From positions 9,525-73,524 of the forward strand of contig JAFSOV010000016.1 of assembly GCA_017443235.1 (NCBI GenBank): a DNA stretch of 64,000 bases, written 5' to 3'. This document shows, piece after piece, positions 604 through 36,978 of this stretch (the stretch's first letter is position 1; each line of letters begins with the position of its first letter). The position numbers and the translations under genes were made by a program. Below the pieces are notes generated by a model, which searched no databases, was not told the DNA's origin, and saw only the letters and a program-made list of their open reading frames with translations. Origin of the DNA: Alphaproteobacteria bacterium (lineage in GTDB: Bacteria > Pseudomonadota > Alphaproteobacteria > Rs-D84).

Positions 604-630
604 CGCACGTCTGTGCGGTTTTTTTCTTGG
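604..630 (+). terminator. hairpin gccgcacgtctgtgcggt followed by a T-run, downstream of birA
   Basis: A GC-stem inverted repeat followed by TTTTTTT. Confidence 0.4.
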
Positions 631-646
631 CACAAAAGGAAGGAAT

Positions 647-1057: not shown

Positions 1058-1069
1058 TCTTTTTAAGGT

Positions 1070-1264: not shown

Positions 1265-1265
1265 T

Positions 1266-1922
1266 ATGGAAAATATACCAGAAAAATTTCGTAAAGACGA
1301 TGGAACATTAAATACAGATGCACTTATAAAATCTTATACGGAATTGGAAAAGAAAATTGGAACGATGATTTCTGTGCCCGATGAAAATGCAGACGAATCG
1401 GCGGTATGCCGCTTTCGCCGTGCGATTGGCGTGCCGGACAGTCCCGATGAATATCCGCAAAATGAAATGTTTGATGATGAAAATGTGCGACAAGAATTTC
1501 ATAAAATTGGTTTAACAAAAAACCAAGTTGAAAAAATTTATGACATCGCACAAAAATTTTTATCGCCTGTGGTTAATGAAATTTTATCTGTGAAACAAGA
1601 ATCAAATGCGATGTCTGAATTAAAAAAATTCTTTGGTGATGATGAAAAAATGTATGATGCGTTTGTTGCAATAAAATCGTTCGGTGAAAGATTTTTACCC
1701 GCCGATGCGTTTAATGAATTGTGCTCTACACCCCAGGGAATTCAAGGTGTGTACAAGATGATGCAATCAATGGAACCATCGGTGCAAACGGATTCGTCCG
1801 ATACGAAAATTTTATCTGATGAAGAATTGCGTCGTATGATGCGTGATCCAAAATATTGGCGTGATCATGATGCGGAATATGTTCGTAAAATTGAAAACGG
1901 TTTCAAAAAATTATATTCGTGA
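1266..1922 (+). CDS. podovirus scaffolding-like protein (gp9 position)
   Basis: AAAGGAAAA RBS. The protein is acidic and helical and begins MENIPEKFRKDDGTLNTDALIKSYTELEKK. It lies upstream of the capsid gene as in T7-like synteny. Confidence 0.4.
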   Translation: MENIPEKFRKDDGTLNTDALIKSYTELEKKIGTMISVPDENADESAVCRFRRAIGVPDSPDEYPQNEMFDDENVRQEFHKIGLTKNQVEKIYDIAQKFLSPVVNEILSVKQESNAMSELKKFFGDDEKMYDAFVAIKSFGERFLPADAFNELCSTPQGIQGVYKMMQSMEPSVQTDSSDTKILSDEELRRMMRDPKYWRDHDAEYVRKIENGFKKLYS

Positions 1923-2041
1923 TGCAATTTTTTTAATAAAAAATAACTTTTCTTCTTTACTAATTTTTTTCTTTAATATAAAATATAAAACAAGAACAAA
2001 AAGAATTTGTTCTATCCAAAAAAAATAAAAAGGAGAGAAGA

Positions 2042-2347
2042 ATGGCATTCACATTCTTGAAGACTGCGGCAAAGAAACCTGCTGCGAAAAAGCCTGCTGC
2101 CAAGAAACCGGCGGCAAAGAAACCAGCCGCGAAAAAACCGGCTGCGAAAAAACCTGCGGTTAAGAAAGTTGCTGCGAAAAAACCGGCTGCGAAAAAAGTA
2201 GCGGTTAAAAAAGTTGCTGCGAAAAAGCCGGCTGCGAAAAAAGTAGCGGTTAAAAAAGTCGCCGCAAAAAAACCGGTTGCAAAGAAAGTCGTTGCGAAAA
2301 AACCGGCTGCAAAAAAAACATGTGCAAAATGTGCCAAAAGAAAATAA
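2042..2347 (+). CDS. histone H1-like lysine/alanine-rich DNA-binding protein (tandem AAKKP repeats)
   Basis: AAAAGGAGAGAAG RBS. A 101-aa protein made of about 18 [10 protein letters not shown] pentapeptide repeats, reflected in a 15-nt DNA periodicity. Confidence 0.7.
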
Positions 2348-2369
2348 TGGTATTGCACTGAGTATATAA

Positions 2370-2397
2370 ATGCCCGCATGTCGGGCATTTTTGTTTT
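2370..2397 (+). terminator. rho-independent terminator after the H1-like gene
   Basis: atgcccgcatgtcgggcat followed by tttttgtttt. A second hairpin, tcagtcagattttttgtctgactga, follows at 2410-2440. Confidence 0.6.
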
Positions 2398-2573
2398 GTG
2401 AAAAATTTCAGTCAGATTTTTTGTCTGACTGAATTTTTTCCTTGGACAATCCACATTGTGGACCCGTTTGAATTTATTTTCGGCGCCGTACGCGGCATAA
2501 CCACAAATAAATTTTTGGTTGGGCGATAATGATTCGCCTGGATTTCAATTTTGATTAAACAAAAGGAATAATA

Positions 2574-3392
2574 ATGTCTGTTTCCATAGATCAAGTATTT
2601 GTGAAACAATTTGAAGCGGATGTTCACCTTGCGTACCAACAGATGGGGACAAAACTGCGTTCAACGATTCGCAGCAAATCGGGCGTTGTCGGTGCATCCA
2701 CAACTTTTCAAAAAATTGGTAAAGGCACGGCCAGTACCAAATCACGTCACGGCATCGTTCCGGTAATGAACCTTAATCACACTCCGGTGGAATGCACATT
2801 GCAAGATTACTATGCCGGCGATTGGGTTGATGCATTGGATGAATTGAAAATCAATATCGATGAACGTCGTGTGGTTGCATCGGCCGGTGCATATGCGTTG
2901 GGTCGCAAAACCGATGAATTGATTGTGAATGCAATGAACAGTGCAACCGGATATGTTGGTGATTATTCAACCGGTCTTACCAAAACATTGATTTTAACCG
3001 CATTGGAAAAACTGAATGAAAATGATGTCCCAGATGATGGCCGCAGATTCGCAGTCGTTGGTGTAAAACAATGGAATGAATTGTTGGGTATCACAGAATT
3101 TTCTTCGGCGGATTATGTCGGTGAAAATATGCCGTTTATCAATGGATGTGAAACAAGAAAGTGGCTTGGTATCACATGGGTTATGTACAACGATTTGCCG
3201 GTTCCGGCCGCTACACATCGTGATTGCTTTATCTATCATGCGTCCAGTGTTGGTCATGCGTGCGGTCAAGAAGTCAAAACGGATATTACATGGCACGGTG
3301 AACGTGCCGCACATTTCATCAGCAACAGTATGTCCCAAGGGGCGGTGCTGATTGATAATGACGGTATTGTTCGTGTCAAGTGCGGTGAATAA
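2574..3392 (+). CDS. T7 gp10-like major capsid protein (short form, 272 aa)
   Basis: The FVKQFEADVHLAYQQ...RSKSG...TFQKIGKGTAS pattern parallels T7 gp10 LKVFGGEVLTAF...RSISSGKSAQFPVLGRTQAA. Its position between the scaffold and tubular protein A matches T7 synteny. Confidence 0.6.
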   Translation: MSVSIDQVFVKQFEADVHLAYQQMGTKLRSTIRSKSGVVGASTTFQKIGKGTASTKSRHGIVPVMNLNHTPVECTLQDYYAGDWVDALDELKINIDERRVVASAGAYALGRKTDELIVNAMNSATGYVGDYSTGLTKTLILTALEKLNENDVPDDGRRFAVVGVKQWNELLGITEFSSADYVGENMPFINGCETRKWLGITWVMYNDLPVPAATHRDCFIYHASSVGHACGQEVKTDITWHGERAAHFISNSMSQGAVLIDNDGIVRVKCGE

Positions 3393-3416
3393 AACAAATA
3401 ATCCAAGGGGTAAAAA

Positions 3417-3647
3417 ATGGCTTTTCAAAATAAAAATTTATCTGTGATTGCGTATGCCAATGGGTTCACACTGTGGCATTATGCCGCCAATGAAACATTG
3501 GCAACGATTACGGCAAGTGGCTACTTTAACGCGGTTAAAACGTTGATGAACACCGGCGATATGGTTTTAATCAATGCATCCGATAAAACGTCAATCAAAA
3601 AAATTGCGGTTGGCGACAGCGCGGTGACCACTGCGGCATTGGATTAA
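3417..3647 (+). CDS. small phage protein between capsid and tail tubular A
   Basis: GGGGTAAAAAATGG RBS. A 76-aa ORF in the operon context. Confidence 0.3.
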   Translation: MAFQNKNLSVIAYANGFTLWHYAANETLATITASGYFNAVKTLMNTGDMVLINASDKTSIKKIAVGDSAVTTAALD

Positions 3648-3713
3648 TACCTTGTTTGTTTGTATGTTGATAAAGGGGTCGATTTCGGCCCCTTGTATTT
3701 TTCTTGGGGGGAA

Positions 3714-4235
3714 ATGATGCTAACAAAAATAGATTTATGTTCAATGGCGTTGTTAAAATTGGGTGAAAACCCGATTCAATCTTTGTCGGACGATACAACG
3801 GCCGCAAAATTGGGACGTACATTGATTGATTTTGTAATAGATACTTTATTGGCGATGCACCCGTGGCGTTTCGCGTGTCATACATACACGGTTGTCAAAG
3901 ACGAAAATGGTGATTTGAATATACCGGCGGATGTTTTGCGTATTCTTAAAACAAATGCGCGTGTTGTTGATAATAAGATTATATCGGATTCGTCTGCGGT
4001 GGATGTTACGGCAATTCGGCGTGTTTCGCCCGATAGTTTTCCAAGTTATTTTTCATCGTTGGTGGCAACAAAACTGGCCGTGGAATTTTGTATTCCGTTG
4101 ACATCAGATCAAACCGTATTTCGGACATTGGTTGCATTATATGAAACAGAATTACAAACGGCGAAATTCATAGACAGTACAACTTCGATAAATCCTGCGA
4201 TAGAAAACTTTTCGTTGTTGGACAGTCGCTTTTAA
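3714..4235 (+). CDS. tail tubular protein A (T7 gp11-like)
   Basis: The N-terminus LCSMALLKLGENPIQSLSDD..AAKLGRTLIDFVIDTLLAMHPWRF parallels T7 gp11 [55 protein letters not shown] RBS. Confidence 0.6.
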   Translation: MMLTKIDLCSMALLKLGENPIQSLSDDTTAAKLGRTLIDFVIDTLLAMHPWRFACHTYTVVKDENGDLNIPADVLRILKTNARVVDNKIISDSSAVDVTAIRRVSPDSFPSYFSSLVATKLAVEFCIPLTSDQTVFRTLVALYETELQTAKFIDSTTSINPAIENFSLLDSRF

Positions 4236-4252
4236 TACCAAGGGGTGTAAAT

Positions 4253-5959
4253 ATGGGAAACTTTATCAAAACGCAAACGTCGTTTGCCAACGGCGAAGTA
4301 TCACCAAATTTTTTTGCGAATTCCAATATCAACGGACTTTCGCGATTGGAAAATATGGACGTGATACCCGGGGGCGGCCTGCGTCGTCGGCCCGGATTAA
4401 AAAAGATTGCCAAATTGTCGGCAAATGCGCGATTGGTTCCGTTTTCAATTTCTGAAACGGAACATTATGTGTTGGCGATAATGAATGGCCTGGTTCGCAT
4501 TTTTTCGGGTGATTCGTTTGTCCAAGATGTATTTGCGCCGTGGTCGGGTGCGGATGTGGGACTGGTCCAATACGCACAACGTTTTGGAACGATGATTTTC
4601 GTTCATCCAGATTACAGTCCCAGAATTTTGTACCGTGATAACGGTATTTTTAAGTTTATGAATTTTTCGTTCTCGTCATCCGATGGTGGCGAAAATGTCG
4701 ATATGCCTTTTATGCGTTTTGAAGATTCGAATAACATAAGTATCACAATCACTATGGTGGGCAGTACGGCGCACCTGAATACGAATCAAGATTTTTGGAC
4801 GGCACAAAATGTTGACGGCCATTTATCCCTTTTGGGAAAAACTTGGTTGATAACATCATATATTGGACCGCGCGAGGTCACCGCGGCGTGTAATGGTATT
4901 TTTACAATACCAAATTCACCAATCATCGATTGGCAAGAAGCCGTATTCAGCCCACGTCGTGGATGGCCAACCAGTATAACTTTTCACCAGAATCGGTTAG
5001 TGTTTGGTGGTTCAAAATCTTGGCCGGGTGGTGTGTGGATGTCGCATGTTGGCGAACATAAAAATTTTAATACCGGCACAGGTTTGGATGACGAAGCGAT
5101 ATGTTTCACACTGTTGTCATCACGACGTCAACATATTTGCACATTGGTCAGCAGTGACAATTTGCAAATCCTTACATCCGAAGGTGAATGGGCGGTTTCA
5201 AATAAACCATTGACCCCGGAATCAGTGAACATAAAAATGCATACCACAATCGGGTGCATCGCGGACAGATATTTGCCGCCCCAAGAAATTGACGGTTCAA
5301 CAATATTTGTGTCGAACAATAAACACGATATACGACAAATGGTTTTGGACGATTTGGGTCAAAATTACCGGGCCGATAATTTGTGTGCATTGGCGGAACA
5401 TATAATGAACAATCCAATTGATATTGCATACAATAAAACAGATAAAAAACTGTTTGTTGTTATGTCAAATGGCGAAATGGCCGTGTTAAATCGAAATACT
5501 GAATTGGGAATTTCCGGATGGGGACACTATATAACCGCGGGTGAATTCAAATCTGTTGCGGTGTCCAATGGCAATACATACGTCGTGACGGAACGCGATT
5601 CGGAATTTATGTTTGAAAGATTCGATGATTCAAAAATGATTGATGCAGACGAATATCCATACACTTCACGTGCCTGTGGATTGCCGATAATGACGTCTGG
5701 ACATAACGCGAAATATACAAGGATTAAAAAGATTGTCGCACGTGTACACAATTCGAAAACTTTATTTATAAACAATTTTCGAACCGCATTTCCAAATGAA
5801 GTTTATGTTGATGGCGCATCCGGATTTTCGGGCGATATGTCAGTAAATGTTTTGGGAACACTGCGTGATATGGTGGACAGTCCATGGGAAATATCAACCA
5901 GTGATGAATTACCATTGACCGTATTATCGATAACAATATATGGCCGATATCAAATATAA
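4253..5959 (+). CDS. tail tubular protein B (T7 gp12-like)
   Basis: The N-terminal FANGEVSPNFF..GLSRLENMDVIPGGGLRRRPGL resembles gp12 GGISQQPDILRYPDQGSRQVNGWSSETEGLQKRPPL. It follows gp11 as in T7. Confidence 0.6.
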   Translation: MGNFIKTQTSFANGEVSPNFFANSNINGLSRLENMDVIPGGGLRRRPGLKKIAKLSANARLVPFSISETEHYVLAIMNGLVRIFSGDSFVQDVFAPWSGADVGLVQYAQRFGTMIFVHPDYSPRILYRDNGIFKFMNFSFSSSDGGENVDMPFMRFEDSNNISITITMVGSTAHLNTNQDFWTAQNVDGHLSLLGKTWLITSYIGPREVTAACNGIFTIPNSPIIDWQEAVFSPRRGWPTSITFHQNRLVFGGSKSWPGGVWMSHVGEHKNFNTGTGLDDEAICFTLLSSRRQHICTLVSSDNLQILTSEGEWAVSNKPLTPESVNIKMHTTIGCIADRYLPPQEIDGSTIFVSNNKHDIRQMVLDDLGQNYRADNLCALAEHIMNNPIDIAYNKTDKKLFVVMSNGEMAVLNRNTELGISGWGHYITAGEFKSVAVSNGNTYVVTERDSEFMFERFDDSKMIDADEYPYTSRACGLPIMTSGHNAKYTRIKKIVARVHNSKTLFINNFRTAFPNEVYVDGASGFSGDMSVNVLGTLRDMVDSPWEISTSDELPLTVLSITIYGRYQI

Positions 5960-5978
5960 AAAAACAAAAGGATAAAAA

Positions 5979-6326
5979 ATGGGACAAGTTATTTCAGATG
6001 TGAAAGATATTTTGAATTACCAAGAGGGCAAGAAAAAAACTGCATCGACCCGCAAAAAAATTTTAAGACAAATGGCCACGGACGAAAATACCAAACAAAA
6101 CCTTGTAAAAAAAGTCTTGGCAACCCAACGCGCAAAATATGGGGCGTCGGGGATGAAAACCCGTGGCCAAACCGAAGATGCGGTTTTGACACGGTTAAAA
6201 CAAGAAACAGAACAACCATATAATGAAAAAAAGCAATCCAATTTGAACAAATTAAAAAATACGCGTGCCAAGAAAAAGAATCTGTTATTGTCGGCATTGG
6301 AACATATGGAAAAATTGGTCGGGTAA
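5979..6326 (+). CDS. small basic protein (possible internal virion protein, gp13 position)
   Basis: A 115-aa lysine-rich protein following tubular B. Confidence 0.3.
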   Translation: MGQVISDVKDILNYQEGKKKTASTRKKILRQMATDENTKQNLVKKVLATQRAKYGASGMKTRGQTEDAVLTRLKQETEQPYNEKKQSNLNKLKNTRAKKKNLLLSALEHMEKLVG

Positions 6327-6327
6327 G

Positions 6328-6921
6328 ATGACGGAATATAACCAATTTTTGGATTCTTGGAATTCAGTATTGGGATTGGTCACGCCCGCGCATCACCATC
6401 GTATGACAAATTTTTTGACCGATGTGTTAGAAGGTGAAAATCATCGTGGTTTGTTGATGGCATTCCGGCATTCGGGAAAATCCACGATAGTCGGGATTTT
6501 TGCAACGTGCGTCCTGTTTCTGCGCCCCCAAACGCGTATTCTTATTTTGTCGGCCCAGACACACCAGGCCGCCCGAATGGTTATGCATATAAGAAACATT
6601 TTGGAAAATCATCCATGGTGCCAAGATATGATTCCAAAAAATCGTCGTGAATGGGCAGAAAATAAAATAACCATAAATCGCCCAATTGGCATTCGCGAAC
6701 CATCGGTACTGTGCCAAGGAATATACGGAAATATAACCGGTATGCGTGCAGATTTGATAATTTGTGATGATGTCGAGGTTCCAAATACATGCAACACCGC
6801 ACGAAAACGTGCGGCGTTGCGTGAAAGATTGCGTGAATTGGATTTCGTGCTGTCCCCAAATGGTACAATGATTTATATCGGGACACCGCACACATTGGAT
6901 ACCATATATCGTACGGTTTAG
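6328..6921 (+). CDS. terminase large subunit, N-terminal ATPase fragment (split gene)
   Basis: Walker A FRHSGKST and Walker B ADLIICDDVE. The fragment ends LDTIYRTV* after motif III, and no nuclease domain follows in this ORF. Confidence 0.7.
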   Translation: MTEYNQFLDSWNSVLGLVTPAHHHRMTNFLTDVLEGENHRGLLMAFRHSGKSTIVGIFATCVLFLRPQTRILILSAQTHQAARMVMHIRNILENHPWCQDMIPKNRREWAENKITINRPIGIREPSVLCQGIYGNITGMRADLIICDDVEVPNTCNTARKRAALRERLRELDFVLSPNGTMIYIGTPHTLDTIYRTV

Positions 6922-7583
6922 TCCGCAGAATCGGTATGTGGTAAAGAACTGGTAATCTTGTGCAATCGGCGCAGTAATTTTTGTCCTTCGTCACCGAACA
7001 TCGGCAGGTATGTTTCATAATCCAACATATCAACCTGAAGCTGTGCACGTGCGCGTTCGTTTATCGGTTTTGCCAAGATTTCGTTTGCATTGTCCCAAAG
7101 TTTATATGCCCTCTGGGTGCGGATAATCATATCAAATTTCTTCAATGCTTCGGGATTGTTATTCAATATGTTCTTGATGGAATTTGCCCAATCAGGACCA
7201 AATTTTTTAACAACCGGGTTTTGCATAAATTCATTCAATTTATCTTGGTCCGGTTCAAAATCATCAATTGCATTTATAAGTTCTGCCATATCCGCAAACG
7301 GCACATCGGTCGCATTTGCGCCTTCGTTCATCATACCACCATAGGGCAATAATTCGCGTGCAATTGAATTCATGGGCGTTTTGCCATCACGCAAATTTTT
7401 TATGTGTTGCGCCAACATTTTGCCGGTGGGTAAATCGGCCATTTCATTCAATACTTCATCGGTGGCCTCGTCAACAAAGACACGATTCACCGCGCCCCAC
7501 CCGCCGACAATAACGTGCGCCTGGCGATACAGATTCAGTAATTTTTGTGCGATTACGCTTGCTTTGGCTTTCATCTCGTTCAA
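6918..7583 (-). CDS. hypothetical protein (221 aa) inside the terminase-interrupting insert
   Basis: A clean ORF ending 4 bp inside the terminase-N stop. I recognise no family for it. Confidence 0.45.
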   Translation of the reverse strand: MNEMKAKASVIAQKLLNLYRQAHVIVGGWGAVNRVFVDEATDEVLNEMADLPTGKMLAQHIKNLRDGKTPMNSIARELLPYGGMMNEGANATDVPFADMAELINAIDDFEPDQDKLNEFMQNPVVKKFGPDWANSIKNILNNNPEALKKFDMIIRTQRAYKLWDNANEILAKPINERARAQLQVDMLDYETYLPMFGDEGQKLLRRLHKITSSLPHTDSAD

Positions 7584-7601
7584 TCCCTCCGTTGGATGGT
7601 G

Positions 7602-8612
7602 TTATTCTGTGGTGACCATAATAACCTTGTGCATAGTTTGCGCAGAAATTTTTTCTTCGGGCGACACTATTTGGCCATAAATTTTGCCTTTGGAATCTTG
7701 ACGTACTATGGCGATTTGTGCGACCAACGTTTTATCATCACTCAGCGTTTTGAAATCGGTATCAACAAACACCGCCAAATCACCAACCGCGGGCACCGAT
7801 TTAACATCTGCAAAAACATAGGAACGTGCCGGAATAAACCCGCCCAGACGTTTAGAATTTGGAATAAGGGCATATACGCCGCGGCGGCCTTCAAGATTTG
7901 CCGGCGCCGCAATCATTGTTGAATCAGATTTTTTGAATGCAATTCCTTTGCCTTCGGGTTTGCCGAAGACCGGAACCAATTTTTTGCGCGCATTATCATA
8001 CAATTTGGCACCATACAAATGTCCCTGCATATCGCCCAAATCGGCAGCGGAATCCCCAGGAACCAGAACGGCCCGTACGCGTTCTTTGACCTTGTTCATT
8101 TGTTTGGTCAGTTCGCCAGATTTATATAAATCTGCGATTTTATCGAACATACTGTCCACAGAATGCGCAAATGAGCGCGCCAATGGTTCAATTTCATTTT
8201 TATATACTTCGCGTTGGCCGACCTCTATCTTGTGATACACAGACAGTGTCATTCCCGCATCTTTGGCGGCCTGGGCAATGGTTTTGCCGGCCTGTTGACG
8301 TATTTTGCGCAGACCACTGCCGAATACTTTCAATCCGCTGTCTTCATTATCGTTCATACGGCGTTTGATTTCATTTTGCCATTTTGCGGCGACTTCGTCT
8401 GTGTCCTTGATGAATATATCGGACAATTTGCACCCCAATATATTGCATATATTTAACAATTGTTTTTGGTTCAGGCGGCGCACACCTTTTTCAATCTTGG
8501 AAACCGCCGACAACGACAATCCCGACCGGCGTGCCAGTTCTGTCATCTTCATACCCGCGGCCAGACGAATGTTGCGAATGTTATTTGGAAAAATGATTTC
8601 TTCTTGGGCCAT
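7602..8612 (-). CDS. XRE-family repressor with two N-terminal HTH domains and a C-terminal LexA/CI (S24)-like beta domain
   Basis: Two HTH_XRE-like segments: IRNIRLAAGMKMTELARRSGLSLSAVSKIEKG and LRKIRQQAGKTIAQAAKDAGMTLSVYHKIEVG. The C-terminal VGDLAVFV...KTLVAQIAIV resembles the LexA C-domain, but I do not see a GDSM catalytic Ser motif. Confidence 0.6.
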   Translation of the reverse strand: MAQEEIIFPNNIRNIRLAAGMKMTELARRSGLSLSAVSKIEKGVRRLNQKQLLNICNILGCKLSDIFIKDTDEVAAKWQNEIKRRMNDNEDSGLKVFGSGLRKIRQQAGKTIAQAAKDAGMTLSVYHKIEVGQREVYKNEIEPLARSFAHSVDSMFDKIADLYKSGELTKQMNKVKERVRAVLVPGDSAADLGDMQGHLYGAKLYDNARKKLVPVFGKPEGKGIAFKKSDSTMIAAPANLEGRRGVYALIPNSKRLGGFIPARSYVFADVKSVPAVGDLAVFVDTDFKTLSDDKTLVAQIAIVRQDSKGKIYGQIVSPEEKISAQTMHKVIMVTTE

Positions 8613-8683
8613 ATAAAACTCCTTGGGATAAATCTTGACAAAATCATAGTCAATTTTAGAAAACTTGGCAAGGAAAAAGTTTA

Positions 8684-8725
8684 ATGGTGGTTAGTGTTAG
8701 TGATTAGTGTAAGTGGTTAGTAACA
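8684..8725. repeat. TTAGTGG heptad repeat block (inverted partial copy of the 62521-62625 element)
   Basis: ggtggttagtgttagtgattagtgtaagtggttagtaacactaa. Its reverse complement contains actaaccacttacactaa, which is identical to 62608-62625. Confidence 0.6.
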
Positions 8726-10267
8726 CTAATTCATATCGTCGGGTATTTCGTTCAGGTCGATAGGCATTGCATCATTGGTTTGCGGTACGGGTGCGCCTTC
8801 TTCGGCAAATTGGATGCCACCACGGTTCGCCATATCGTTCAGGTTATCAAACAAACTGAATTCCGGCAAGAACGCCAATTTAATGGTATCTGTTTTTCCG
8901 TGGCGGTTTTTGCCGATAATGACATCGGCTTTGCCTTTGGATTTTTCCATACGATTTTGCCACGAATCAACAGACCTTTCATTCGGGGCACCCGAAAGAC
9001 GGTGCGACGGGTCGCGATTCGCCAAATAATATTCTTCACGATACGTGAACATAACAATGTCCGCGTCTTGTTCAATAGAACCGGATTCACGCAAATCCGA
9101 CAATTGCGGGCGTTTATCATCACGCATTTCAACACTGCGCGATAACTGCGACAGGGCGATAACCGGAACCTCAAATTCCTTGGCCAACATTTTAAGGGCG
9201 CGCGTTATTTCGGACAGTTCTTGGACACGATTATCTTTGTTTTTCCCGCCCGGCGAAGTCAATAATTGCAGGTAATCAATCACAATCAGCGCAATTCCGT
9301 TATATTTGCGCGCCAATCTCCGCACGCGCGTGCGAATCATTGGCACCGACATCCCCGGTGTATCGTCAATGAACAATGGAATACGACTTATCGCATCGGA
9401 AAATTGCGTCATTTTAAGAAAGTCTTCATCGGTCAATGAACCTTCGCGCATCGCACTGGACGGGATGCGTGATTGCGAAGACAAAACACGTGCCGCCAAT
9501 TCGGATGCACCCATTTCCAGGCTGAAAAACGCGACCGCGCCGGTATACTGCGGGTTGGCGCGGCCCGAAAATATCGCGTTTGCCGCATTGAATGCAATAT
9601 TCATGGCCAATGTCGTTTTACCCATACCCGGACGCCCCGCGATAATCAACAGGTTTGATTTGTGCATACCACTTATTGCGGAATCTAAATCGGTCAATCC
9701 CGTTGTCAATCCGGACAATTTGCCGTCCGCCTTGTATGCGATTTCGGCCTCAACCAGTGCGCTTTTTAACGCGTTGGCAATCGGTGTGACATCACGCCCG
9801 GAATCACCACTTGTCGCCATATTGAACAGCATTTGTTCCGCATTTTCGATTTGGGTCGTCACCGGTTTGTCCAAATCTTCGACAAATGCGTCATCGGTTA
9901 TATTTTGTCCAATTTGAATCAGTTCGCGGCGCATCGCATTTTCATGCACGATTCGTCCATATTGTTCAACGTTCACAACCGTTGCGCCCGCGCCCGCCAA
10001 TTGTGTCAAATAATCGATTCCGCCCACAGATTCCAATGTTCCCTGTTGGTCCAGATAGTTTTTAACGGTAATTATGTCGAACGGTATTCCGGCCGCAAAT
10101 TGGCGCATCGCCAAACGATATATTTCTTGGTGGGCGGGATGGGAAAAATCTTCGGCTTTCAAAAATTCGGAAATTTTTTCCAGTGCGCGGTTGTTGATAA
10201 GCACCGCCGCCAAGACGGCCTGTTCGGCCTCCATATTCGTTGGTAAAGTTTTGGGAGTAAAGTCCAT
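8726..10267 (-). CDS. dnaB: DnaB-family replicative DNA helicase
   Basis: A full DnaB N-domain plus the RecA-like domain with Walker A GRPGMGKTT and the SLEMGASELAARVL and IDYLQLL motifs. At 513-515 aa there is no room for an intein. Confidence 0.85.
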   Translation of the reverse strand: MDFTPKTLPTNMEAEQAVLAAVLINNRALEKISEFLKAEDFSHPAHQEIYRLAMRQFAAGIPFDIITVKNYLDQQGTLESVGGIDYLTQLAGAGATVVNVEQYGRIVHENAMRRELIQIGQNITDDAFVEDLDKPVTTQIENAEQMLFNMATSGDSGRDVTPIANALKSALVEAEIAYKADGKLSGLTTGLTDLDSAISGMHKSNLLIIAGRPGMGKTTLAMNIAFNAANAIFSGRANPQYTGAVAFFSLEMGASELAARVLSSQSRIPSSAMREGSLTDEDFLKMTQFSDAISRIPLFIDDTPGMSVPMIRTRVRRLARKYNGIALIVIDYLQLLTSPGGKNKDNRVQELSEITRALKMLAKEFEVPVIALSQLSRSVEMRDDKRPQLSDLRESGSIEQDADIVMFTYREEYYLANRDPSHRLSGAPNERSVDSWQNRMEKSKGKADVIIGKNRHGKTDTIKLAFLPEFSLFDNLNDMANRGGIQFAEEGAPVPQTNDAMPIDLNEIPDDMN

Positions 10268-11111
10268 GTCCAATATACTATATGAAAAAAATGTTTTTTC
10301 AACGCCTTTTTTATGCGGGTATGCCGAATTAAAAATTCCAATACTGGATTCAAGCGGAAATTCGGCATGGCCGGCGGTTTTTCCGCCTGAAAAAATTGCC
10401 CAAATCAGGGATACGGTCGGTGAAAGGCATTTTTCGGCGCAAATGATGCTGGATTATGTGTCGCCTGAAAAAATCCGCCTGGATCCCGGGACAATACATT
10501 TTTATGAAGACGAATTTGACCCACACACCGCCCGCATCGGGGACGATTTAATGTCGGGTGCGGCAATTTATTGGGACCCATCGGGTGGCCGCCGCGGCGC
10601 CGATAACAGTGTTTGTGCATTGATTTATCGTGACGATAAAAATCGCCGCGTCTTTATACACGATATTATCTATGTTGTTGTGCCAGATGAAATAGATTAT
10701 CCATTGGCATATCAATGTGACCGGATTATCGAATTTGTGCGTCACAGCAATATGCACCAAATTGCATTGGAAACAAATGGTCTTGGGGCGGCATTACCCG
10801 AAATTATGCGTGACATCATAAAGCGTAATGGTGGCGGAATAAATCTGCGCCCAATAACAAATTCGCGGCGCAAAGAAGACCGTATATTGGACGCATTGGA
10901 ACCATTAATGTCAACGGGTCGATTGTTCGCCCATCGGCGAATCACCCAAACCCCATTTATTACAGAAATGTTGGCATGGTCGCCATTAGGCGGATGCGAA
11001 CACGATGACGGTTTGGATGCGGTTGCCGGTGCAATTACGTGTCCGCCGGTACCTGTGCGCCCAACCTTTGGTGGTGCGCGGTATATGGCAAACACAGATT
11101 TCAAAATTTAA
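10266..11111 (+). CDS. terminase large subunit, C-terminal nuclease fragment (split gene)
   Basis: It starts exactly at the dnaB start on the other strand. The AIYWDPSGGRRGADNSVCAL...HDIIYVV...ETNGLG...DDGLDA pattern is the RNaseH-like nuclease domain of large terminases. Confidence 0.65.
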   Translation: MSNILYEKNVFSTPFLCGYAELKIPILDSSGNSAWPAVFPPEKIAQIRDTVGERHFSAQMMLDYVSPEKIRLDPGTIHFYEDEFDPHTARIGDDLMSGAAIYWDPSGGRRGADNSVCALIYRDDKNRRVFIHDIIYVVVPDEIDYPLAYQCDRIIEFVRHSNMHQIALETNGLGAALPEIMRDIIKRNGGGINLRPITNSRRKEDRILDALEPLMSTGRLFAHRRITQTPFITEMLAWSPLGGCEHDDGLDAVAGAITCPPVPVRPTFGGARYMANTDFKI

Positions 11112-11132
11112 TACATAACAAAAGGAAAAAAT

Positions 11133-12359
11133 ATGAAATATGATTTACAACAAATGTACAATCGCGCGATAAATATGCGTGAACCTTGGTTGCGTCGTTG
11201 GGCGGATGCGCGCCGTTATACCATGCCATCAACCGATGAAGATTTGGCGACACTGTTTGATGCGACCGCATCGGACGCGGCCGACAATTTGGCGGCGTGT
11301 ATGTATTCGCTGTTGACGCCCCCAGAATCTTTGTGGTTAAACCTTGTTCGTGAAAGCGATGATTCGCCCGACCCAGAAATCGCAACCGCGGCATTGCGTG
11401 CGAATTTGAATGATTCGAATTTTTACACAACGATTCATCAATGCTATATGGATTTAGTGACATTGGGGACGGCGTGCCTGTTTATGGCGGAATCGCCCAT
11501 TGGCACGGCCAGTGCGTTTTCATTTACGGCAATTCCAATTTCTGATATTGCAATTTTACCGGATGCGATATTTCATACAACAACGCTTTCGGCGGCGGAA
11601 ATTTCGCGCCGTTATCCTGAATGGACACCGCCACGCGATATAATGAAAAAAATGCAGCAAGATGCGGAATACAGACTTCGCCTGGTCCAATCTTTGGTGG
11701 GTACTGAATTTACCGCGTGGATTGACGTTGGCGGCGACTTTGAAAACAACATAGTGTCGCGTGGGACATTCGAAACGAATCCTTATTTGATTTTCCGTTG
11801 GTCGGTGGCCAGTGGTGAATTATACGGTCGTGGCCCGATTTTGCGCGCTTTGCCGGACATCAAAACCGCAAACAAAGTTGTCGAATTGGTTTTGAAAAAT
11901 GCAACAATCGCGGTCAGTGGCATATGGCAGGCCGATGATGACGGCGTCATAAACCTTGGCAATATCAATTTAACACCGGGTGCGATAATACCAAAAGCCG
12001 TGGGCAGTTCGGGCCTGACGCCACTTGCGTCGGGTGCAAATTTTGATGTGTCGCAAATTATTTTGAAAGATTTGCGCGAACGTATCCGGCACACTTTATT
12101 GGCGGACAGAATCGGTTTGTTATCTGAAAAAGAAATGACCGCAACAGAAATCTTGGCGCGCAATGCGGATATGCTGCGCATTTTGGGTGCGACATATGGG
12201 CGTCTGTTGCATGAATTTATACGGCCACTGTGCGACCGCGGATTGCAAATATTGGCACGGCGGGGCGTGATTGACAAGATATCATTGCACGGTGATGCAG
12301 AATTGAAATACATCGCGCCCATCGCGCAAATGGTTGCAGAAAATAATACAATAATTTAG
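11133..12359 (+). CDS. head-tail connector (portal) protein, T7 gp8-like
   Basis: ELYGRGPILRALPDIK and TATEILARNADMLRILGATYGRLLHEFIRPLCDRGLQILARRG parallel the T7 gp8 central and C-terminal regions. Confidence 0.6.
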   Translation: MKYDLQQMYNRAINMREPWLRRWADARRYTMPSTDEDLATLFDATASDAADNLAACMYSLLTPPESLWLNLVRESDDSPDPEIATAALRANLNDSNFYTTIHQCYMDLVTLGTACLFMAESPIGTASAFSFTAIPISDIAILPDAIFHTTTLSAAEISRRYPEWTPPRDIMKKMQQDAEYRLRLVQSLVGTEFTAWIDVGGDFENNIVSRGTFETNPYLIFRWSVASGELYGRGPILRALPDIKTANKVVELVLKNATIAVSGIWQADDDGVINLGNINLTPGAIIPKAVGSSGLTPLASGANFDVSQIILKDLRERIRHTLLADRIGLLSEKEMTATEILARNADMLRILGATYGRLLHEFIRPLCDRGLQILARRGVIDKISLHGDAELKYIAPIAQMVAENNTII

Positions 12360-12370
12360 TGGTGATAAAT

Positions 12371-12577
12371 ATGGAACGTATAGAAATCGCATATGCGCGC
12401 ACGTTCGGCGGCGCATCGGGTGCGGTCGTTTTGGAACATCTGCGCAAGATTACGATTGAACGGTCGTTGGGACCAAATGCGTCTGAATCAGAACTGCGCA
12501 GTATCGAAGCCCAACGTGCATTGGTTCATAAAATAGAACAATTGGTATTACGGGGGCGTGAAAATGCAAAAACATAA
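12371..12577 (+). CDS. small phage-associated protein
   Basis: A 68-aa ORF overlapping the next ORF. It belongs to the module by context. Confidence 0.3.
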   Translation: MERIEIAYARTFGGASGAVVLEHLRKITIERSLGPNASESELRSIEAQRALVHKIEQLVLRGRENAKT

Positions 12578-12821
12578 TGGACTGGCAAATATAATTGATA
12601 CACTGCGCAGTGGATGGTTTTTAATTGCGTTTATTGGTGGTATGATTTATTGGGTCGCGCGCCAAGATAATGCATTGGTGGAACTGGACCGATTGACGGT
12701 TCGTATGACAACACTGGAAAATCGCACAACGGTGTTGGAAACCGGAATAGGCCAATTACAATTAAAAATAGACGGCATCAAAGAAGACGTCACTTTGATA
12801 AAAACTGCGGTTATAAAGTAA
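12558..12821 (+). CDS. small membrane/coiled-coil protein (phage module end)
   Basis: An 87-aa protein with an N-terminal TM helix and a coiled coil. It is followed by a strong terminator. Confidence 0.3.
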   Translation: MKMQKHNGLANIIDTLRSGWFLIAFIGGMIYWVARQDNALVELDRLTVRMTTLENRTTVLETGIGQLQLKIDGIKEDVTLIKTAVIK

Positions 12822-12827
12822 AAGAAA

Positions 12828-12866
12828 ATCCCGCGCATTTATGTGTGCGGGATAATTTTTGTTTTT
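12828..12866. terminator. bidirectional rho-independent terminator
   Basis: atcccgcgcatttatgtgtgcgggat followed by aatttttgttttt. Confidence 0.65.
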
Positions 12867-13014
12867 AGCAACCACCGGTCGCGGCGCCAATCCATTTAGA
12901 AACAGAAATATCTTTGTGTAACAAGAAATGATATTCGCAATTTCCAGATTTATATGCACCTGTGCAGGCGGCCAAAGTCAAAACAGCAAACAATGCCAAG
13001 ATAACTTTTTTCAT
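12865..13014 (-). CDS. small cysteine-containing lipoprotein (49 aa; entericidin-like architecture)
   Basis: Not in the ORF track because it is under 60 aa. It translates as MKKVILALFAVLTLAACTGAYKSGNCEYHFLLHKDISVSKWIGAATGGC, with a lipobox LAAC and an AAAGGAGAA RBS. Confidence 0.4.
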   Translation of the reverse strand: MKKVILALFAVLTLAACTGAYKSGNCEYHFLLHKDISVSKWIGAATGGC

Positions 13015-13092
13015 TTGTTCTCCTTTTATGCTTTTAACGCATTTATGATTATATTCATATATTGGGATTTTACAAGTATTTTTTATTGGTTG

Positions 13093-13434
13093 CTAAAATG
13101 CCTGTTTAATCCATTTGATATGAAATCCGTGGATTATTATTACGTCGAAACGTGCATCGCCCATCCACCGTTTTTGCAACAGGTATGTTTCCGCCGCCGC
13201 GCGCAGACGCTTTATTTGTGTCCATGTAATTGCATCAAATCCCGCCGATATGGTTTTGCGTTTTTTGACCTCAACAAAAATAATTAAATTTCCGCGTTTG
13301 GCAATTATATCTATCTCGGCGCGGCCCGTGTGGCGCCCCGTTGTGTATCGCCGCCGGACAATTCGAAACCCGTGCAGCATTAAATATGCGCACGCAACGA
13401 TTTCTGCAAAAATCCCGATTTTATAAGAATCCAT
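13093..13434 (-). CDS. yraN: YraN-family (UPF0102) endonuclease
   Basis: KIGIFAEIVACAYLMLHGFRIV...EIDIIAKRGNLIIFVEVKKR are typical YraN motifs. Confidence 0.75.
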   Translation of the reverse strand: MDSYKIGIFAEIVACAYLMLHGFRIVRRRYTTGRHTGRAEIDIIAKRGNLIIFVEVKKRKTISAGFDAITWTQIKRLRAAAETYLLQKRWMGDARFDVIIIHGFHIKWIKQAF

Positions 13435-21709: not shown

Positions 21710-22330
21710 ATGCTTTACATCGTACGCCATGGACAAACCGATTGGAACCTTGAAGACAAAATTCAGGGTGTTGCCGATGTGCCATTAAACGCAACCGGAC
21801 GGGCCCATGCATATAAAGTCGCGGAAAAATTGAACATTTTCCAAATTCAAAACATTGTTTCATCTAACCTGGGGCGGGCGCGTGAAACGGCGCAAATAAT
21901 CGGCGATAGATTGCACATTACGGTTGATTATGATGCGCGCCTGCGTGAATATGATTTTGGAAAATTGACGGGGTTAAAACGCGCGGAAATTGACCCATTG
22001 GCCGTGCAAATGTTCTTTACCAACCCGGCCAAATTTGACGCAGAAAGATTGGAAGATGCCTTTGCACGTGTTGCGGGTTTTATGAAAGAAAATGATTATA
22101 ATAAAAATACTTTGGTTGTCACGCATGGTGGGGTTATAAACTTTATAATGTGTTATTTGGAAAATCGGGACACTTTCCACGCGCATTCATACCTTGATAA
22201 ATGTCTGAATGTGAAAATCGATAATGCGGCCGTGTTGCGCATCAAAGATTATAAATCTGGTATGACAATACTTAAAAACACAAGGTTTTTCAAATTGCCC
22301 CAGTTTTATAAATTACCAAAATCACGCTAA
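21710..22330 (+). CDS. histidine phosphatase family protein (phosphoglycerate mutase-like)
   Basis: N-terminal LYIVRHGQTDWN catalytic motif and an internal TLVVTHGGVI motif. Confidence 0.6.
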   Translation: MLYIVRHGQTDWNLEDKIQGVADVPLNATGRAHAYKVAEKLNIFQIQNIVSSNLGRARETAQIIGDRLHITVDYDARLREYDFGKLTGLKRAEIDPLAVQMFFTNPAKFDAERLEDAFARVAGFMKENDYNKNTLVVTHGGVINFIMCYLENRDTFHAHSYLDKCLNVKIDNAAVLRIKDYKSGMTILKNTRFFKLPQFYKLPKSR

Positions 22331-23097
22331 TTCCCGGCCGGCAGATATATTTTATACGGCACATATTCATGGGGCGTTGCCGATATTTCTACCATAGGCT
22401 CGACTATGTCATTAGGTGAAAACCTGGCAGTTTGTGCCCATAGCCCTCGAACATATCCATCCGTCCCTATTCTAAATTGATATCCCACATGATCACCAAC
22501 GGTTATCTGGGTTCCTGTCTGTCGCTTTACAAACGCGTTTTCTGTGGGTGCGCTATACAGGAATGAAGCACTATGAACTGGTGGAGTGCCACTTTTAGAT
22601 GTTATATTTATAATATCGCCACTTTTTACATGAATATAATCAAAATAGCAACGATTGCCAGCCGTCTCTACCTTTCCGTCTACCCCACGAATTGTTCCCT
22701 GATGAATGTTTGATTTATTTAAAATATTTTTCGGACGTTGCGACATTAATTCCATTAGCAAACAATCTTTGGTCGGGTCATCATCAACCCAAGATATACA
22801 TTGAAACTCACTGTCTATTGCGTTTTGAACCCCTGTGTTCATTGTTTGTGCGTCAATCAGAGCGTTGCTTTGTTCGACGTATGCGCCAGCGGAATCATAG
22901 ATTTCTTTTGTACCAACTTCACCCTCCGTGCCGGTGTTGGTAAGGACCTGAGATGCGCCCGTCGTGCGTTCAATTGTGTCTTGTTTTTGCGTTAGTGCCG
23001 AATCGACATATGATTTTGTTGTTGGTACAGTTTCCCCCGCCGCACCCGCAGAAAACACCGCCAATGCACCGATTATTGATATAAAAAAACGCCGCAT
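22327..23097 (-). CDS. secreted hypothetical protein
   Basis: A signal peptide MRRFFISIIGALAVFSAGAAG. The N-terminal TKSYVDSAL motif is shared with the 36466 protein. Confidence 0.45.
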   Translation of the reverse strand: MRRFFISIIGALAVFSAGAAGETVPTTKSYVDSALTQKQDTIERTTGASQVLTNTGTEGEVGTKEIYDSAGAYVEQSNALIDAQTMNTGVQNAIDSEFQCISWVDDDPTKDCLLMELMSQRPKNILNKSNIHQGTIRGVDGKVETAGNRCYFDYIHVKSGDIINITSKSGTPPVHSASFLYSAPTENAFVKRQTGTQITVGDHVGYQFRIGTDGYVRGLWAQTARFSPNDIVEPMVEISATPHEYVPYKIYLPAGN

Positions 23098-23126: not shown

Positions 23127-23322
23127 ACAAAAAAGGTACGTTTTTTGTGGCCACCCATAAGGTTTTAAAAAATCAAGTAATTTCAATGCTCGAATTTTCG
23201 GGAAAAAAGCCTGGACAAAAACGTACGTTTATGTCCATCACTTTTTTTAGAAATTGCGATTCAGTAAAATCAATTACTTACAAAACGTGACCCCTGGTCA
23301 CAAAAAACGTACCTTTTTTATG
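23127..23322. repeat. palindrome-flanked non-coding repeat element, copy 1
   Basis: ACAAAAAAGGTACGTTTTTTGT at 23127 and its reverse complement at 23297, plus a central palindrome GGACAAAAACGTACGTTTATGTCC. The core TTTTTTTAGAAATTGCGATTCAGTAAAATCAA is shared with 36133-36175. Confidence 0.6.
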
Positions 23323-23355: not shown

Positions 23356-24276
23356 CTAAATCAAATACCAAACATACGCCACATAGGAAACCAAGAATAT
23401 TATTCCGCCCACGCGGGTCAGTTTTGCGCCACGCGCCGTGAACATCATCAACATTACAACCGCCATCATCGCAATTGCACCGTCGAATATAAACGCCGGA
23501 TTAAATGGCAACGGGTGTATCGCCGCCGCCGTTCCCAAAACAAACAGTATGTTAAATATATTCGACCCAACAATATTACCAACCGCCATATCATATTCGC
23601 GCTTTAACGCGGCGGCAACGCAAACCGCCAATTCGGGCAAACTGGTGCCCAACGCGACCAATGTCAATCCAATAACGCGATCGGACACACCCACGCGTGT
23701 CGCGATATCCATTGCGGAATCTACGGTCAAATTGCTGCCCAGAACAATGGCGGAAATACCCACAATTATCATCAATATTGTCATCGGTATGGAAAATTGT
23801 TTGATTTCAGGTTCCGGTTCATTTGAACGTCGCGCCATAATAACAGTATAGGTAATAAACCCGGCGAACATTGCCAAGAATATAAATGCGGCAATTCGCG
23901 ATACAGACCCAAACCATATCCCAAACCCAACCAGCAATAATGTTATCAGTCCAACAAACGGTAATTCATACTTCTTGGTGTTTTTATGTATCGGCAATGC
24001 GCCAATCAACGCCGTTATGCCCAGTATCAGGAAAATGTTCGTAATATTACTGCCTATGACATTACCAATTGAAACGCCGTCTGAGCCCTTTAATGCGGCG
24101 GCGATACTGATTGCGGCCTCGGGCGCACTGGTACCAATGGCGACAAGCGTTGTTCCAATTATGATTGCCGGAATATGGAACCTGCGCGCAACGCCTGCGG
24201 CGGCATCTACAAACGCGTCCGCCCCGCGCACCAATAACACAAACCCGATAATCAACAAAATCAAAGATTCAATCAT
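23356..24276 (-). CDS. CaCA-family Na+/Ca2+ antiporter (YrbG-like)
   Basis: Two alpha-repeats with GTSAPE/GTSLPE motifs and about 10 TM segments. Confidence 0.75.
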   Translation of the reverse strand: MIESLILLIIGFVLLVRGADAFVDAAAGVARRFHIPAIIIGTTLVAIGTSAPEAAISIAAALKGSDGVSIGNVIGSNITNIFLILGITALIGALPIHKNTKKYELPFVGLITLLLVGFGIWFGSVSRIAAFIFLAMFAGFITYTVIMARRSNEPEPEIKQFSIPMTILMIIVGISAIVLGSNLTVDSAMDIATRVGVSDRVIGLTLVALGTSLPELAVCVAAALKREYDMAVGNIVGSNIFNILFVLGTAAAIHPLPFNPAFIFDGAIAMMAVVMLMMFTARGAKLTRVGGIIFLVSYVAYVWYLI

Positions 24277-35918: not shown

Positions 35919-35995
35919 TGGCGCACCCAGAAGGATTCGAACCCTCAGTCTTCTGATCCGTAGTCAGACGCTTTATCCAGTTGAGCTATGGGTGC
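35919..35995 (-). tRNA. tRNA-Arg (anticodon ACG)
   Basis: The reverse complement folds as a cloverleaf with acceptor GCACCCA/TGGGTGC, anticodon loop CTACGGA, T-arm GGTTCGAATCC, and CCA. Confidence 0.85.
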
Positions 35996-36103: not shown

Positions 36104-36220
36104 TTATGCGAACTGGTCAAAAAAAACGAACGTTTTTGTCCAGTGTTTTTTTAGAAAAAATTATTCAGTAAAATCAACAAATCTAAAACCCGCAAAATGG
36201 GGGGACAAAAACGTTCGTTT
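36104..36220. repeat. palindrome-flanked non-coding repeat element, copy 2 (next to tRNA-Arg)
   Basis: CTGGTCAAAAAAAACGAACGTTTTTGTCCAG, then TTTTTTTAGAAAAAATTATTCAGTAAAATCAA, then GGGACAAAAACGTTCGTTTTTTGT. The architecture matches 23211-23322. Confidence 0.6.
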
Positions 36221-36465
36221 TTTGTTATCATTATAAACATAAAACAACACCGTCAGGCACGACAAGAGAGTCGTCATCCCGCGGAAAAAAGCCGTCATCC
36301 CGTTGTAAAACGGGATCTGGTGGTTCACGACGAGACTGACAAGATCCCGGCCTGGACCACCCAAAAAATGCATTCGCATTTTTCGGGGCCCGGTGCGCCG
36401 GGATGACGAGAGAAAGGCGGTATGACGGTGGAGAGATTAACAAGCAAGCAAAAAGGAAGGGAAAT

Positions 36466-36978
36466 ATGAGGATTTCAATTCTTACCATTGGTGCGGTTGC
36501 ATCAATTATCGCAATCAATTCAGTTTCGGCGGATACAACATCAACCGTTACATCACGGGGATATGTTGATGCCGAAGTCGCAAAAAAGCAAAACATTATC
36601 CCAGAAGCATATATGAATTACGAAGAAAATGGCACTGGTGAAACCGTTGTCACATATACCAATAATGCCGGCGTACTTGGTGAACGTGAAATTATGAATA
36701 GTATTTACGATTATGATTATACTATGCCCAAACATAGTGACTGGTTGGTTAGCGCCGGCGCACTGGATGAAGCAATAAAACGGAACAAGTACGGGGTGTA
36801 CAATGTGGCGCAGAAGATTTGCACAGAATGGGTTGCCGGTCAGGCACAAACAGATGCAAATTGTCTACTTTGGGATTTGGTGCCGGTTAATATCAATTAT
36901 GAAAAATGTTACAGTAATCATGACTGCGCAATTAACGCGTGTTGTAGAAATAATGTTTGTGGTGATTGTCCAACTTAA
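36466..36978 (+). CDS. secreted cysteine-rich hypothetical protein
   Basis: AAGGAAGGG RBS. A signal peptide MRISILTIGAVASIIAINSVSA and a C-terminal Cys cluster CYSNHDCAINACCRNNVCGDC. Confidence 0.5.
   Translation: MRISILTIGAVASIIAINSVSADTTSTVTSRGYVDAEVAKKQNIIPEAYMNYEENGTGETVVTYTNNAGVLGEREIMNSIYDYDYTMPKHSDWLVSAGALDEAIKRNKYGVYNVAQKICTEWVAGQAQTDANCLLWDLVPVNINYEKCYSNHDCAINACCRNNVCGDCPT

Follow-up and report, generated by a model that had tools for sequence, protein, structure and literature searches.

The window analyzed here is a 64-kb stretch (64,000 nucleotides) of contig JAFSOV010000016.1 from an alphaproteobacterium of the Rs-D84 lineage, and it contains two copies of a non-coding element in which short dyad-symmetric sites flank an AT-rich core. 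Copy 1 spans 23127-23321, copy 2 spans 36114-36229, and each lies beside a gene for a secreted protein (Table 1). These two genes, gene 1 and gene 2, are paralogues (30% identity, E=1e-7) whose products both have a signal peptide, with T..(S/G)YVD....KQ as a common N-terminal and C..W....C.L(W/M) as a common C-terminal motif, and the product of gene 1 matches the hidden Markov model (HMM) of the family. A family search of the whole window returned genes 1 and 2 as its sole two members, one beside each element. An earlier reading made from the sequence alone (the sequence-only reading) had placed copy 1 between convergent genes. Instead, both of its neighbors are on the minus strand, in tandem; because gene 1 is the one downstream, copy 1 is the upstream region of gene 1. 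The element is a conserved cis-regulatory cassette of a surface-protein gene family, and the cassettes are probably invertible promoters (invertons) that would give phase variation.

The palindrome ACAAAAAAGGTACGTTTTTTGT, the central palindrome GGACAAAAACGTACGTTTATGTCC and the AT-rich core TTTTTTTAGAAATTGCGATTCAGTAAAATCAA of copy 1 are all present (site A, site B and the canonical core in Table 1). A third palindrome, described there as an exact reverse complement of the first beginning at 23297, starts instead at 23300, and its sequence, ACAAAAAACGTACCTTTTTTAT, agrees with the reverse complement at 21 of 22 positions. The second copy does repeat the same core and palindromes, but its span had been misplaced at 36104-36220. 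Copy 1 is a three-site, two-unit version of the element with the canonical unit distal to gene 1; its proximal unit, U1, aligns to canonical units either way round, depending on the reference unit. The cores of the two copies have a 32-nt frame in common, with 27 of 32 bases identical, and the TT center of the copy 2 right site is the inverse of the AA center of its left site. Compared with shuffling controls, the palindrome consensus with up to three mismatches occurs three times in the window (0.01 expected) and the gapped core pattern twice (0.00 expected). The central 14-mer AAAACGNNCGTTTT, allowing one mismatch, has six matches (1.23 expected), five of them within the two elements. An independent repeat search also recovered the inverted-repeat pairs of both copies (I1, I2, I9).

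Table 1. Features of the two cassette copies and their neighbors (window coordinates).
Feature	Position	Strand	Sequence	Remarks
Family gene 1	22327..23097	-		secreted, 256 aa, signal peptide, N-terminal T..SYVD....KQ; served by copy 1
Site A, copy 1 (gene-proximal, dyad-symmetric)	23127..23148		ACAAAAAAGG TA CGTTTTTTGT	center 23137|23138
U1, copy 1 (proximal degenerate promoter-type unit)	23149..23212			no assignable direction
Site B, copy 1	23213..23236		GGACAAAAACG TA CGTTTATGTCC	center 23224|23225, 87 bp from site A
Canonical core, copy 1	23242..23273	+		T-run, AGAAA, -10-like TAAAAT at 23265-23270
Site C, copy 1	23300..23321		ACAAAAAACG TA CCTTTTTTAT	center 23310|23311, 86 bp from site B
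Na/Ca exchanger gene	23356..24276	-		other neighbor of copy 1
tRNA-Arg	35919..35995	-		neighbor of copy 2, opposite side from gene 2
Left site, copy 2	36114..36143		TGGTCAAAAAAAACG AA CGTTTTTGTCCAG	center 36129|36130, dinucleotide AA
Canonical core, copy 2	36146..36177	+		-10-like TAAAAT at 36169-36174
Right site, copy 2	36203..36229		GGACAAAAACG TT CGTTTTTTGTTATC	center 36214|36215, 85 bp from left site
Gene 2 5' leader, long	36230..36465	+		GC-rich palindromic insertion, then ribosome-binding site (AGGAAGGG)
Family gene 2	36466..36978	+		secreted, 170 aa; served by copy 2

An exact scan of 185,579 species genomes with the core pattern TTTAGAAANNNNNATTCAGTAAAAT returned 44 loci. Defining a true cassette as a core match with flanking palindromes, we counted 42 from this one pattern: two in the window, 26 in RGIG8116 (the metagenome-assembled genome, or MAG, 'Alphaproteobacteria bacterium RGIG8116' from water-buffalo rumen), 13 in JAZQCF01 ('Candidatus Enterousia sp.') and one in RUG585. 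Seven chance core matches in genomes (Flavobacteria, Ewingella and others) had no flanking palindromes. The same pattern gave only 15 chance matches in JGI metagenomes, all without palindromes, and none in IMG/VR, and the element had no match in plasmid and phage collections. Per genome of ~0.9 Mb there are at least 26 cassettes in one Ca. Enterousia-like MAG, roughly one per 35 kb, and 13 in another, with diverged versions in other relatives. Relatives thus carry the element, which is conserved and present in more than two copies, and the dispersed family of palindromes around an AT-rich core that had been proposed from the window is borne out. Origin from a tRNA or rRNA fragment is excluded, since only three tRNAs reach the Rfam gathering threshold in the window; the Rfam search gave no covariance-model match to the element. 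The window's own genome was found again in many ENA and Logan gut-type assemblies. Ca. Enterousia belongs to the order Rs-D84, has genomes of 0.75-1.0 Mb, and is widespread and uncultured in the guts of animals and humans (PMC12306168).

Association of the cassette with the secreted-protein family is strict. Among the 32 cassettes with readable flanks (the remaining 10 of the 42 are cut by contig or locus ends), every one adjoins a gene of the family. The gene lies downstream of the core in 29 of these 32, mostly at 82-96 nt, and the core points away from it in the other three. Starting from the genes, the family HMM gave 43 matches across all loci: 32 with the cassette in the ON orientation, four in divergent pairs in which each gene has its own unit, four OFF and three without a recognizable cassette. 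The family itself comprises at least 444 clusters at E<=1e-5, all annotated as 'hypothetical' and lacking a Pfam domain, and searches against Pfam, PHROGs and PDB sequences gave no match. Its members carry signal-peptidase-I-type signal peptides and no lipobox. An AlphaFold model of one family protein reached moderate confidence (pLDDT 67.7), and Foldseek with this model found no significant match. Comparing the window with RGIG8116, the flanking housekeeping genes are 86-88% identical and the family gene between them is not alignable at the DNA level, a pattern consistent with rapid diversification. A gene for a Slam-like (surface lipoprotein assembly modifier) outer-membrane protein is also found in the window, at 53520-54896, and may have a bearing on how this organism displays surface proteins, though the switched family has no lipobox.

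The anatomy of the unit could be read directly from these copies. Toward the gene, the left site, usually preceded by the upstream gene's rho-independent terminator, is followed by the segment, the right site, the leader, the ribosome-binding site (RBS) and the ATG. The dyad-symmetric sites measure ~26-30 bp, with a left-site consensus of TGGTCA(C)A5-7(C/G)G-WW-C(C/G)T5GTCCA. The AT-rich segment of ~60 bp consists of a T6-7 run, AGAAA, ~12 nt, a -10-like TAAAAT (TAATTT in diverged units) and ~35 nt up to the right site, beyond which the leader takes up ~30 nt. The -10-like element and the T-run therefore lie between the sites, and the RBS and ATG lie outside the gene-proximal site. Spacing from site center to site center is 86 bp in 25 cassettes, 85 bp in 11 and 84 bp in two. 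Three cassettes from a more distant genome (L088; ERZ1104449) have a spacing of 107 bp, which exceeds the usual value by 21-22 bp, or two helical turns. Conservation is 0.90-0.96 over both sites and the segment and ~0.54 just beyond each site. At the cassette borders we saw no target-site duplication, and the bases beyond the two sites are mutually unrelated.

We infer that the core is a promoter from its position, from the TAnnnT fixed in all lineages and from the lack of any other conserved promoter-like element. Three other promoter assignments were considered and rejected. The core of copy 2 is not taken as the promoter of the adjacent tRNA-Arg gene because that gene has a TTGCAA-16-TAAAAT candidate of its own and the family-wide orientation of the core is opposite. 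A minus-strand promoter, TTGATT-18-TAAAAA, has a -10 that is not conserved in diverged units, unlike TAAAAT/TAATTT in the plus direction. The TATAAT found just 3' of the gene-proximal site in some copies is likewise not conserved, and its second position is often not A. Beyond the cassette, the leader of gene 2 is stretched to ~285 nt by a GC-rich palindromic element at ~36268-36410 (GTCATCCCG...CGGGATGAC). Similar GC-rich palindromic elements occur in related genomes, at 9620-9790 of L089 and in the flanks of the L020 cassettes. This leader element looks more like a true repeat of the miniature inverted-repeat transposable element (MITE) or repetitive extragenic palindromic (REP) type than the promoter cassette does.

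The sites resemble the crossover sites of serine invertases: each consists of two ~12-bp half-sites that form an imperfect palindrome about a 2-bp core, and an A/T-tract lies beside the core-flanking bases. The arms of copy 2 contain AAACGTTCGTT, which on the appropriate strand is an exact match to ARACGTTCGTN, the consensus of the inverted repeats at Mpi-controlled promoters of B. fragilis (PMC8375218). The same stretch overlaps GTTCGTTTAA, the repeat used by capsule promoters of B. intestinalis (PMC8375218). We also read the borders of the phage Mu G segment directly, with the Gin gene alongside, as gix = TTATCCAAAACC-TC-GGTTTACAGGAA and TTCCTGTAAACC-GA-GGTTTTGGATAA; compared in their core form these are CCAAAACC-TC-GGTTTACA and TGTAAACC-GA-GGTTTTGG. 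The L088 sites, AAAAAAACC-AA-GGTTT and AAAAAAACC-TT-GGTTT (AAACC-AA-GGTTT / AAACC-TT-GGTTT), have an AAACC-NN-GGTTT core in common with Mu gix. All lineages follow one plan, in which an A-tract half-site, two core-flanking bases and a 2-bp center are followed by the mirror image. The core-flanking bases vary dyad-symmetrically by lineage (CG..CG, GG..CC, CC..GG), and asymmetric pairs (CG..CC, GG..CG) also occur. Where the centers are asymmetric they are mutually inverted, in 14 of 14 type-2 cassettes (13 AA..TT and one TT..AA, the latter at L056) and in 3 of 3 L088 cassettes; since type-2 and L088 cassettes are related by descent, these are not 17 independent observations. Mutually inverted centers are what a serine invertase requires; they could also be imposed by a looping protein that is symmetric.

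The core has opposite orientations relative to the gene at copies 1 and 2, which prompted the hypothesis of inversion. Read as a promoter, the core of copy 2 faces gene 2 and would be ON; in copy 1 the canonical core faces away from gene 1, toward the 3' end of the exchanger gene, and would be OFF. The other three OFF loci are L037:6116 (which recurs as L093 in another assembly), L048:331 and L079:16184 (which recurs in L081 and L083). At OFF loci the inter-site segment is reversed compared with flanks homologous to those of ON loci, the outer half-sites stay with the flanks, and the reading frames of the genes are intact. Both orientations are therefore observed among paralogous loci (4 OFF versus about 32 ON), and never at one locus across assemblies. 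Additionally, L015 and L033 each have two back-to-back units between divergent family genes, with the middle site in common, and L030 has two units in tandem.

Two candidate cases of one locus in two states were discarded. BLAST aligns the cassette in reverse between collinear flanks of the window and RGIG8116 (L058); this case was not counted, as the window has two units there versus one in L058 and the degenerate proximal unit can be read either way. L026 and L037:6116 proved to be paralogues with 83% identity. Mapping the crossover from hybrid sites was also given up, because the inner half-sites are identical and exchange can be placed only within a 14-nt stretch that includes the center. 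Contigs frequently end at a cassette. In independent assemblies, L087 and L094 start (position 1) at, or one base before, the gene-proximal GGTACC center; this may be chance, may come from the way the inverted repeat behaves in the assembly graph, or may hint that the crossover point is heterogeneous. Logan contigs from 5-6 samples end within the copy 1 core (the end of L005 and the start of L014, SRR12529382; window 23247-23277), and these breaks leave exactly 31 nt uncovered, which is the k-mer size. The geometry of the Logan breaks is wrong for inversion heterogeneity and points to a polymorphism at this place, in the form of a GTAA duplication or a difference in poly-A length.

In the mechanism that we propose, a segment bearing a promoter (TAAAAT after the T-run and AGAAA) would lie between hix/gix/Mpi-type crossover sites. 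A trans-acting recombinase, which would probably be a small serine invertase, would bring the two sites together and flip the segment. When ON, the promoter would read through the gene-proximal site into the short leader and the hypervariable secreted-protein gene, and when OFF it would read away from the gene. With a switch of this kind at each gene, and about 13-26 or more in a ~0.9 Mb genome, cells could present combinatorial surface repertoires. What we observed directly is how the cassettes are built and spaced, how similar their sites are, how strictly they accompany the family genes, and that both orientations occur among family loci; promoter activity, a recombinase and present-day switching are inferences. 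We favor invertible promoters because this reading covers all of the anatomy, the invertase type of the sites, the existence of reversed copies whose genes are intact, the direction of the copy 1 promoter and the double units with a common site.

Several results weigh against this reading. The type-1 cassettes, copy 1 among them, have a symmetric TA center, which alone sets no site polarity. At 85-86 bp between crossover centers, the segment is to our knowledge shorter than in characterized invertons, and its inversion would need a very tight DNA loop. A simple sigma-70 scanner finds no -35 match and so makes no promoter call at the core. The estimate of core conservation is biased, as the cassettes were ascertained by a core pattern with 20 core positions fixed. 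Seven loci could be followed in 2-6 independent assemblies, and orientation was identical in all 27 locus-by-assembly observations (five assemblies for copy 1, six for copy 2, and the remainder from five other loci). Consensus assemblies show the majority state alone. Concordant orientations therefore neither refute switching nor show it. In B. fragilis, promoter-specific inversion rates produce a reproducible, locus-specific majority orientation, each promoter with its own characteristic ON fraction (PMC10403206); by analogy, a locus-specific majority orientation would account for the constancy across assemblies seen here.

The search for a recombinase adds a further point against it. A tblastn search of ~590 kb of partly redundant related loci with sequences of Hin, gamma-delta resolvase, XerD and FimB, together with a motif regular expression, found no serine recombinase. 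Nor did a recombinase turn up in the window, which was swept with Pfam, in the 7-10 kb past either of its ends or around seven family genes in four genomes. The sole catalytically plausible tyrosine recombinase in the searched DNA is a XerD-like gene of housekeeping type in L043, with 42% identity to E. coli XerD. An integrase-like protein, encoded at 6651-7655 of L079, 2.3 kb from a family gene, and kept in three assemblies, has arm-binding and central domains and a C-terminal region without the catalytic Arg/His/Tyr; such a protein could be a remnant or could bind DNA without catalysis. Invertases of the Hin/Gin type are encoded beside their segment and have a Fis enhancer in cis, and no invertase gene lies within 10 kb of any cassette examined here. 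Because an 85-bp segment is too small for a Hin-type enhancer, a serine invertase, if one is at work in this system, must be enhancer-independent and act in trans, like Mpi.

A different account of the same anatomy is a fixed promoter between two operators, at about -53 and +33 from the inferred start, where a dimeric or tetrameric regulator would loop the 85-86 bp segment and co-regulate the whole family; reversed cassettes would then be rare accidents of inverted-repeat recombination. We consider this unlikely. In its favor, each site is dyad-symmetric, the spacing is strictly kept and differs between lineages by whole helical turns (85-86 versus 107 bp) as in loop-forming operators, and a looped complex with two-fold symmetry could also give rise to the mutually inverted centers. 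Loops this short are well precedented for the repressors GalR and LacI. The constant orientation across assemblies and the lack of a recombinase in the searched DNA also agree with such a regulator. What it leaves unexplained is that the sites are specifically invertase-like, with an exact Mpi consensus and a gix core, and that at four loci the whole inter-site segment is inverted while cassettes and genes are intact. Additionally, the perfectly conserved promoter of copy 1 faces the 3' end of an unrelated gene, where it would have no role, back-to-back units with a common site lie between divergent genes, and no candidate regulator was identified.

The sequence-only reading had favored a MITE- or REP-like element, and we now regard a mobile or repetitive element spread through the genome, possibly with an outward promoter, as very improbable. 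Terminal inverted repeats of ~28 nt around a short non-coding core, many copies per genome, sharp conservation borders and the contigs that often end at the element would all suit a repeat of this kind. Against this, each readable copy lies at a fixed distance beside a gene of one family and none is found in other contexts, the borders show no target-site duplications, and plasmid and phage collections hold no match. The leader and signal-peptide region beyond the cassette are also homologous, which indicates that the cassette duplicates with its gene. REP elements and bacterial interspersed mosaic elements (BIMEs) are GC-rich palindromes of ~35 bp at gene 3' ends or between convergent genes; the cassettes are AT-rich, promoter-proximal and 5' regulatory, with tandem neighbors. 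Least probable of all is a small RNA, also raised in the sequence-only reading, or a cis-acting structured RNA such as a leader or attenuator. The region does fold far better than shuffled sequences (z = -8.1), and the gene-proximal palindrome would fall within the leader when ON. But the fold is merely the pairing of the DNA inverted repeats, single palindromes form AU-rich hairpins of low stability, and no Rfam family matches. Moreover, the upstream site, which would not be transcribed, is equally conserved, and the occurrence of both orientations relative to the gene is incompatible with a strand-specific RNA function.

Returning to invertible promoters, the closest match in overall design is the mpl (P35) system of M. 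penetrans, together with the Mpi regulon of B. fragilis; the sites themselves come nearest in sequence to the Mpi repeats and hix/gix. In M. penetrans most mpl genes, of which there are 38, each have their own invertible promoter, and inversion has been shown experimentally (PMC2268961). As in the system proposed here, a reduced genome carries paralogous surface-protein genes over several loci, each with an adjacent small invertible promoter and independent ON/OFF control. The two differ in that the candidate recombinases of M. penetrans are Xer-like tyrosine enzymes encoded near the genes (PMC2268961), that its short inverted repeats are unrelated, and that its products are lipoproteins whereas the Enterousia proteins have no lipobox. 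B. fragilis Mpi (FinA) and B. intestinalis are alike in habitat (the gut) and in having dispersed promoters of surface molecules with short inverted repeats. In B. fragilis a single trans-acting serine invertase flips the promoters; there the recombinase is known, and here none was found in the searched DNA. The invertible segments of B. intestinalis are about 183-186 bp (PMC8375218), compared with 85-86 bp here, and the Bacteroides switches control polysaccharide operons from Bacteroidetes-type promoters, in contrast to single secreted-protein genes in an alphaproteobacterium.

The Hin/Gin/Cin/Pin systems have the same two ~12-bp half-sites, an A-tract leading into CC|NN|GG and a 2-bp center inverted between sites. 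They differ in having kilobase segments at a single locus with the invertase beside the segment, whereas here segments of 85-107 bp occur at dozens of loci with no invertase adjacent. These systems need a Fis-bound enhancer. GalR/LacI loops are similar in that two dyad-symmetric sites flank a promoter at whole-helical-turn spacing; the sites here are of the invertase type and not the LacI-family type, and the segment occurs in both orientations. MITEs and REP/BIME repeats are also short, non-coding and multicopy with terminal inverted repeats, but the cassettes lack target-site duplications, are promoter-proximal to a single family and co-duplicate with its genes.

Several other features of the window were noted. 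Phage-type structural genes and host genes are intermingled over window 1-13300; the former are a T7-type scaffold (1209-1922), capsid (2574-3392), tail tube (3660-4235), an N-terminal terminase fragment (6265-6921) and a portal (11133-12359), with DnaB (8726-10273) and a double-HTH_3 protein (7602-8612) among them. No integrase was found in the 7 kb to the left of this region, which could be a domesticated podovirus or a gene-transfer-agent-like cluster. Beside the scaffold-like gene, at 2021-2344, is a 15-nt tandem repeat of about 20 units with lysine/alanine/proline-type codons. TAGTG-NN-TAGTG runs, which are stop-codon-rich heptamer repeats, occur at 8698-8709, 59352-59363(-) and 62526-62557, giving five matches in the window versus 0.00 expected; they lie just after stop codons and before terminators, and are also found at gene ends in related genomes (L088 ~9732, L093 ~2236, L079 ~15925). 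The Queuosine_synth match of queA (44948-46597) is broken into two parts by a DUF559 (Vsr-like endonuclease) domain inserted in the gene, and the open reading frame holds three GC-rich palindromic repeats of ~51 nt (45048, 45750, 46293).

Taken together, we tentatively suggest, as a possibility just short of an even chance, that Ca. Enterousia, an uncultured inhabitant of gut and rumen, runs genome-wide phase variation. Invertible promoters smaller than any yet seen (85-86 bp from crossover point to crossover point, and 107 bp in a sister lineage), present by the dozen and one per orphan hypervariable secreted-protein gene, would be flipped by one invertase that works in trans without an enhancer, is of Hin/Mpi ancestry and may have come from gut Bacteroidales or phage. 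The kind of system is already known; of interest are the lineage in which it would occur, how many switches a genome holds and how short the segment is. A search of the accessible literature found no paper linking Enterousia to phase variation, and the system, if real, would be the first of its kind described in this lineage. In practical terms, the cassette fragments short-read assemblies of these genomes and offers a simple signature for locating the regulated genes. Cassettes of 85-86 bp whose sites are hix/Mpi-like would probe how small a segment site-specific inversion can handle, and their density would be among the highest known for DNA switches in any genome. If true, the proposal also suggests that modules of an invertase plus its sites move between distant gut phyla. 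For these reduced organisms, which have hosts, phages and neighbors to deal with, the family of at least 444 orphan secreted proteins, each with a switch-like cassette of its own, would be the main variable surface.

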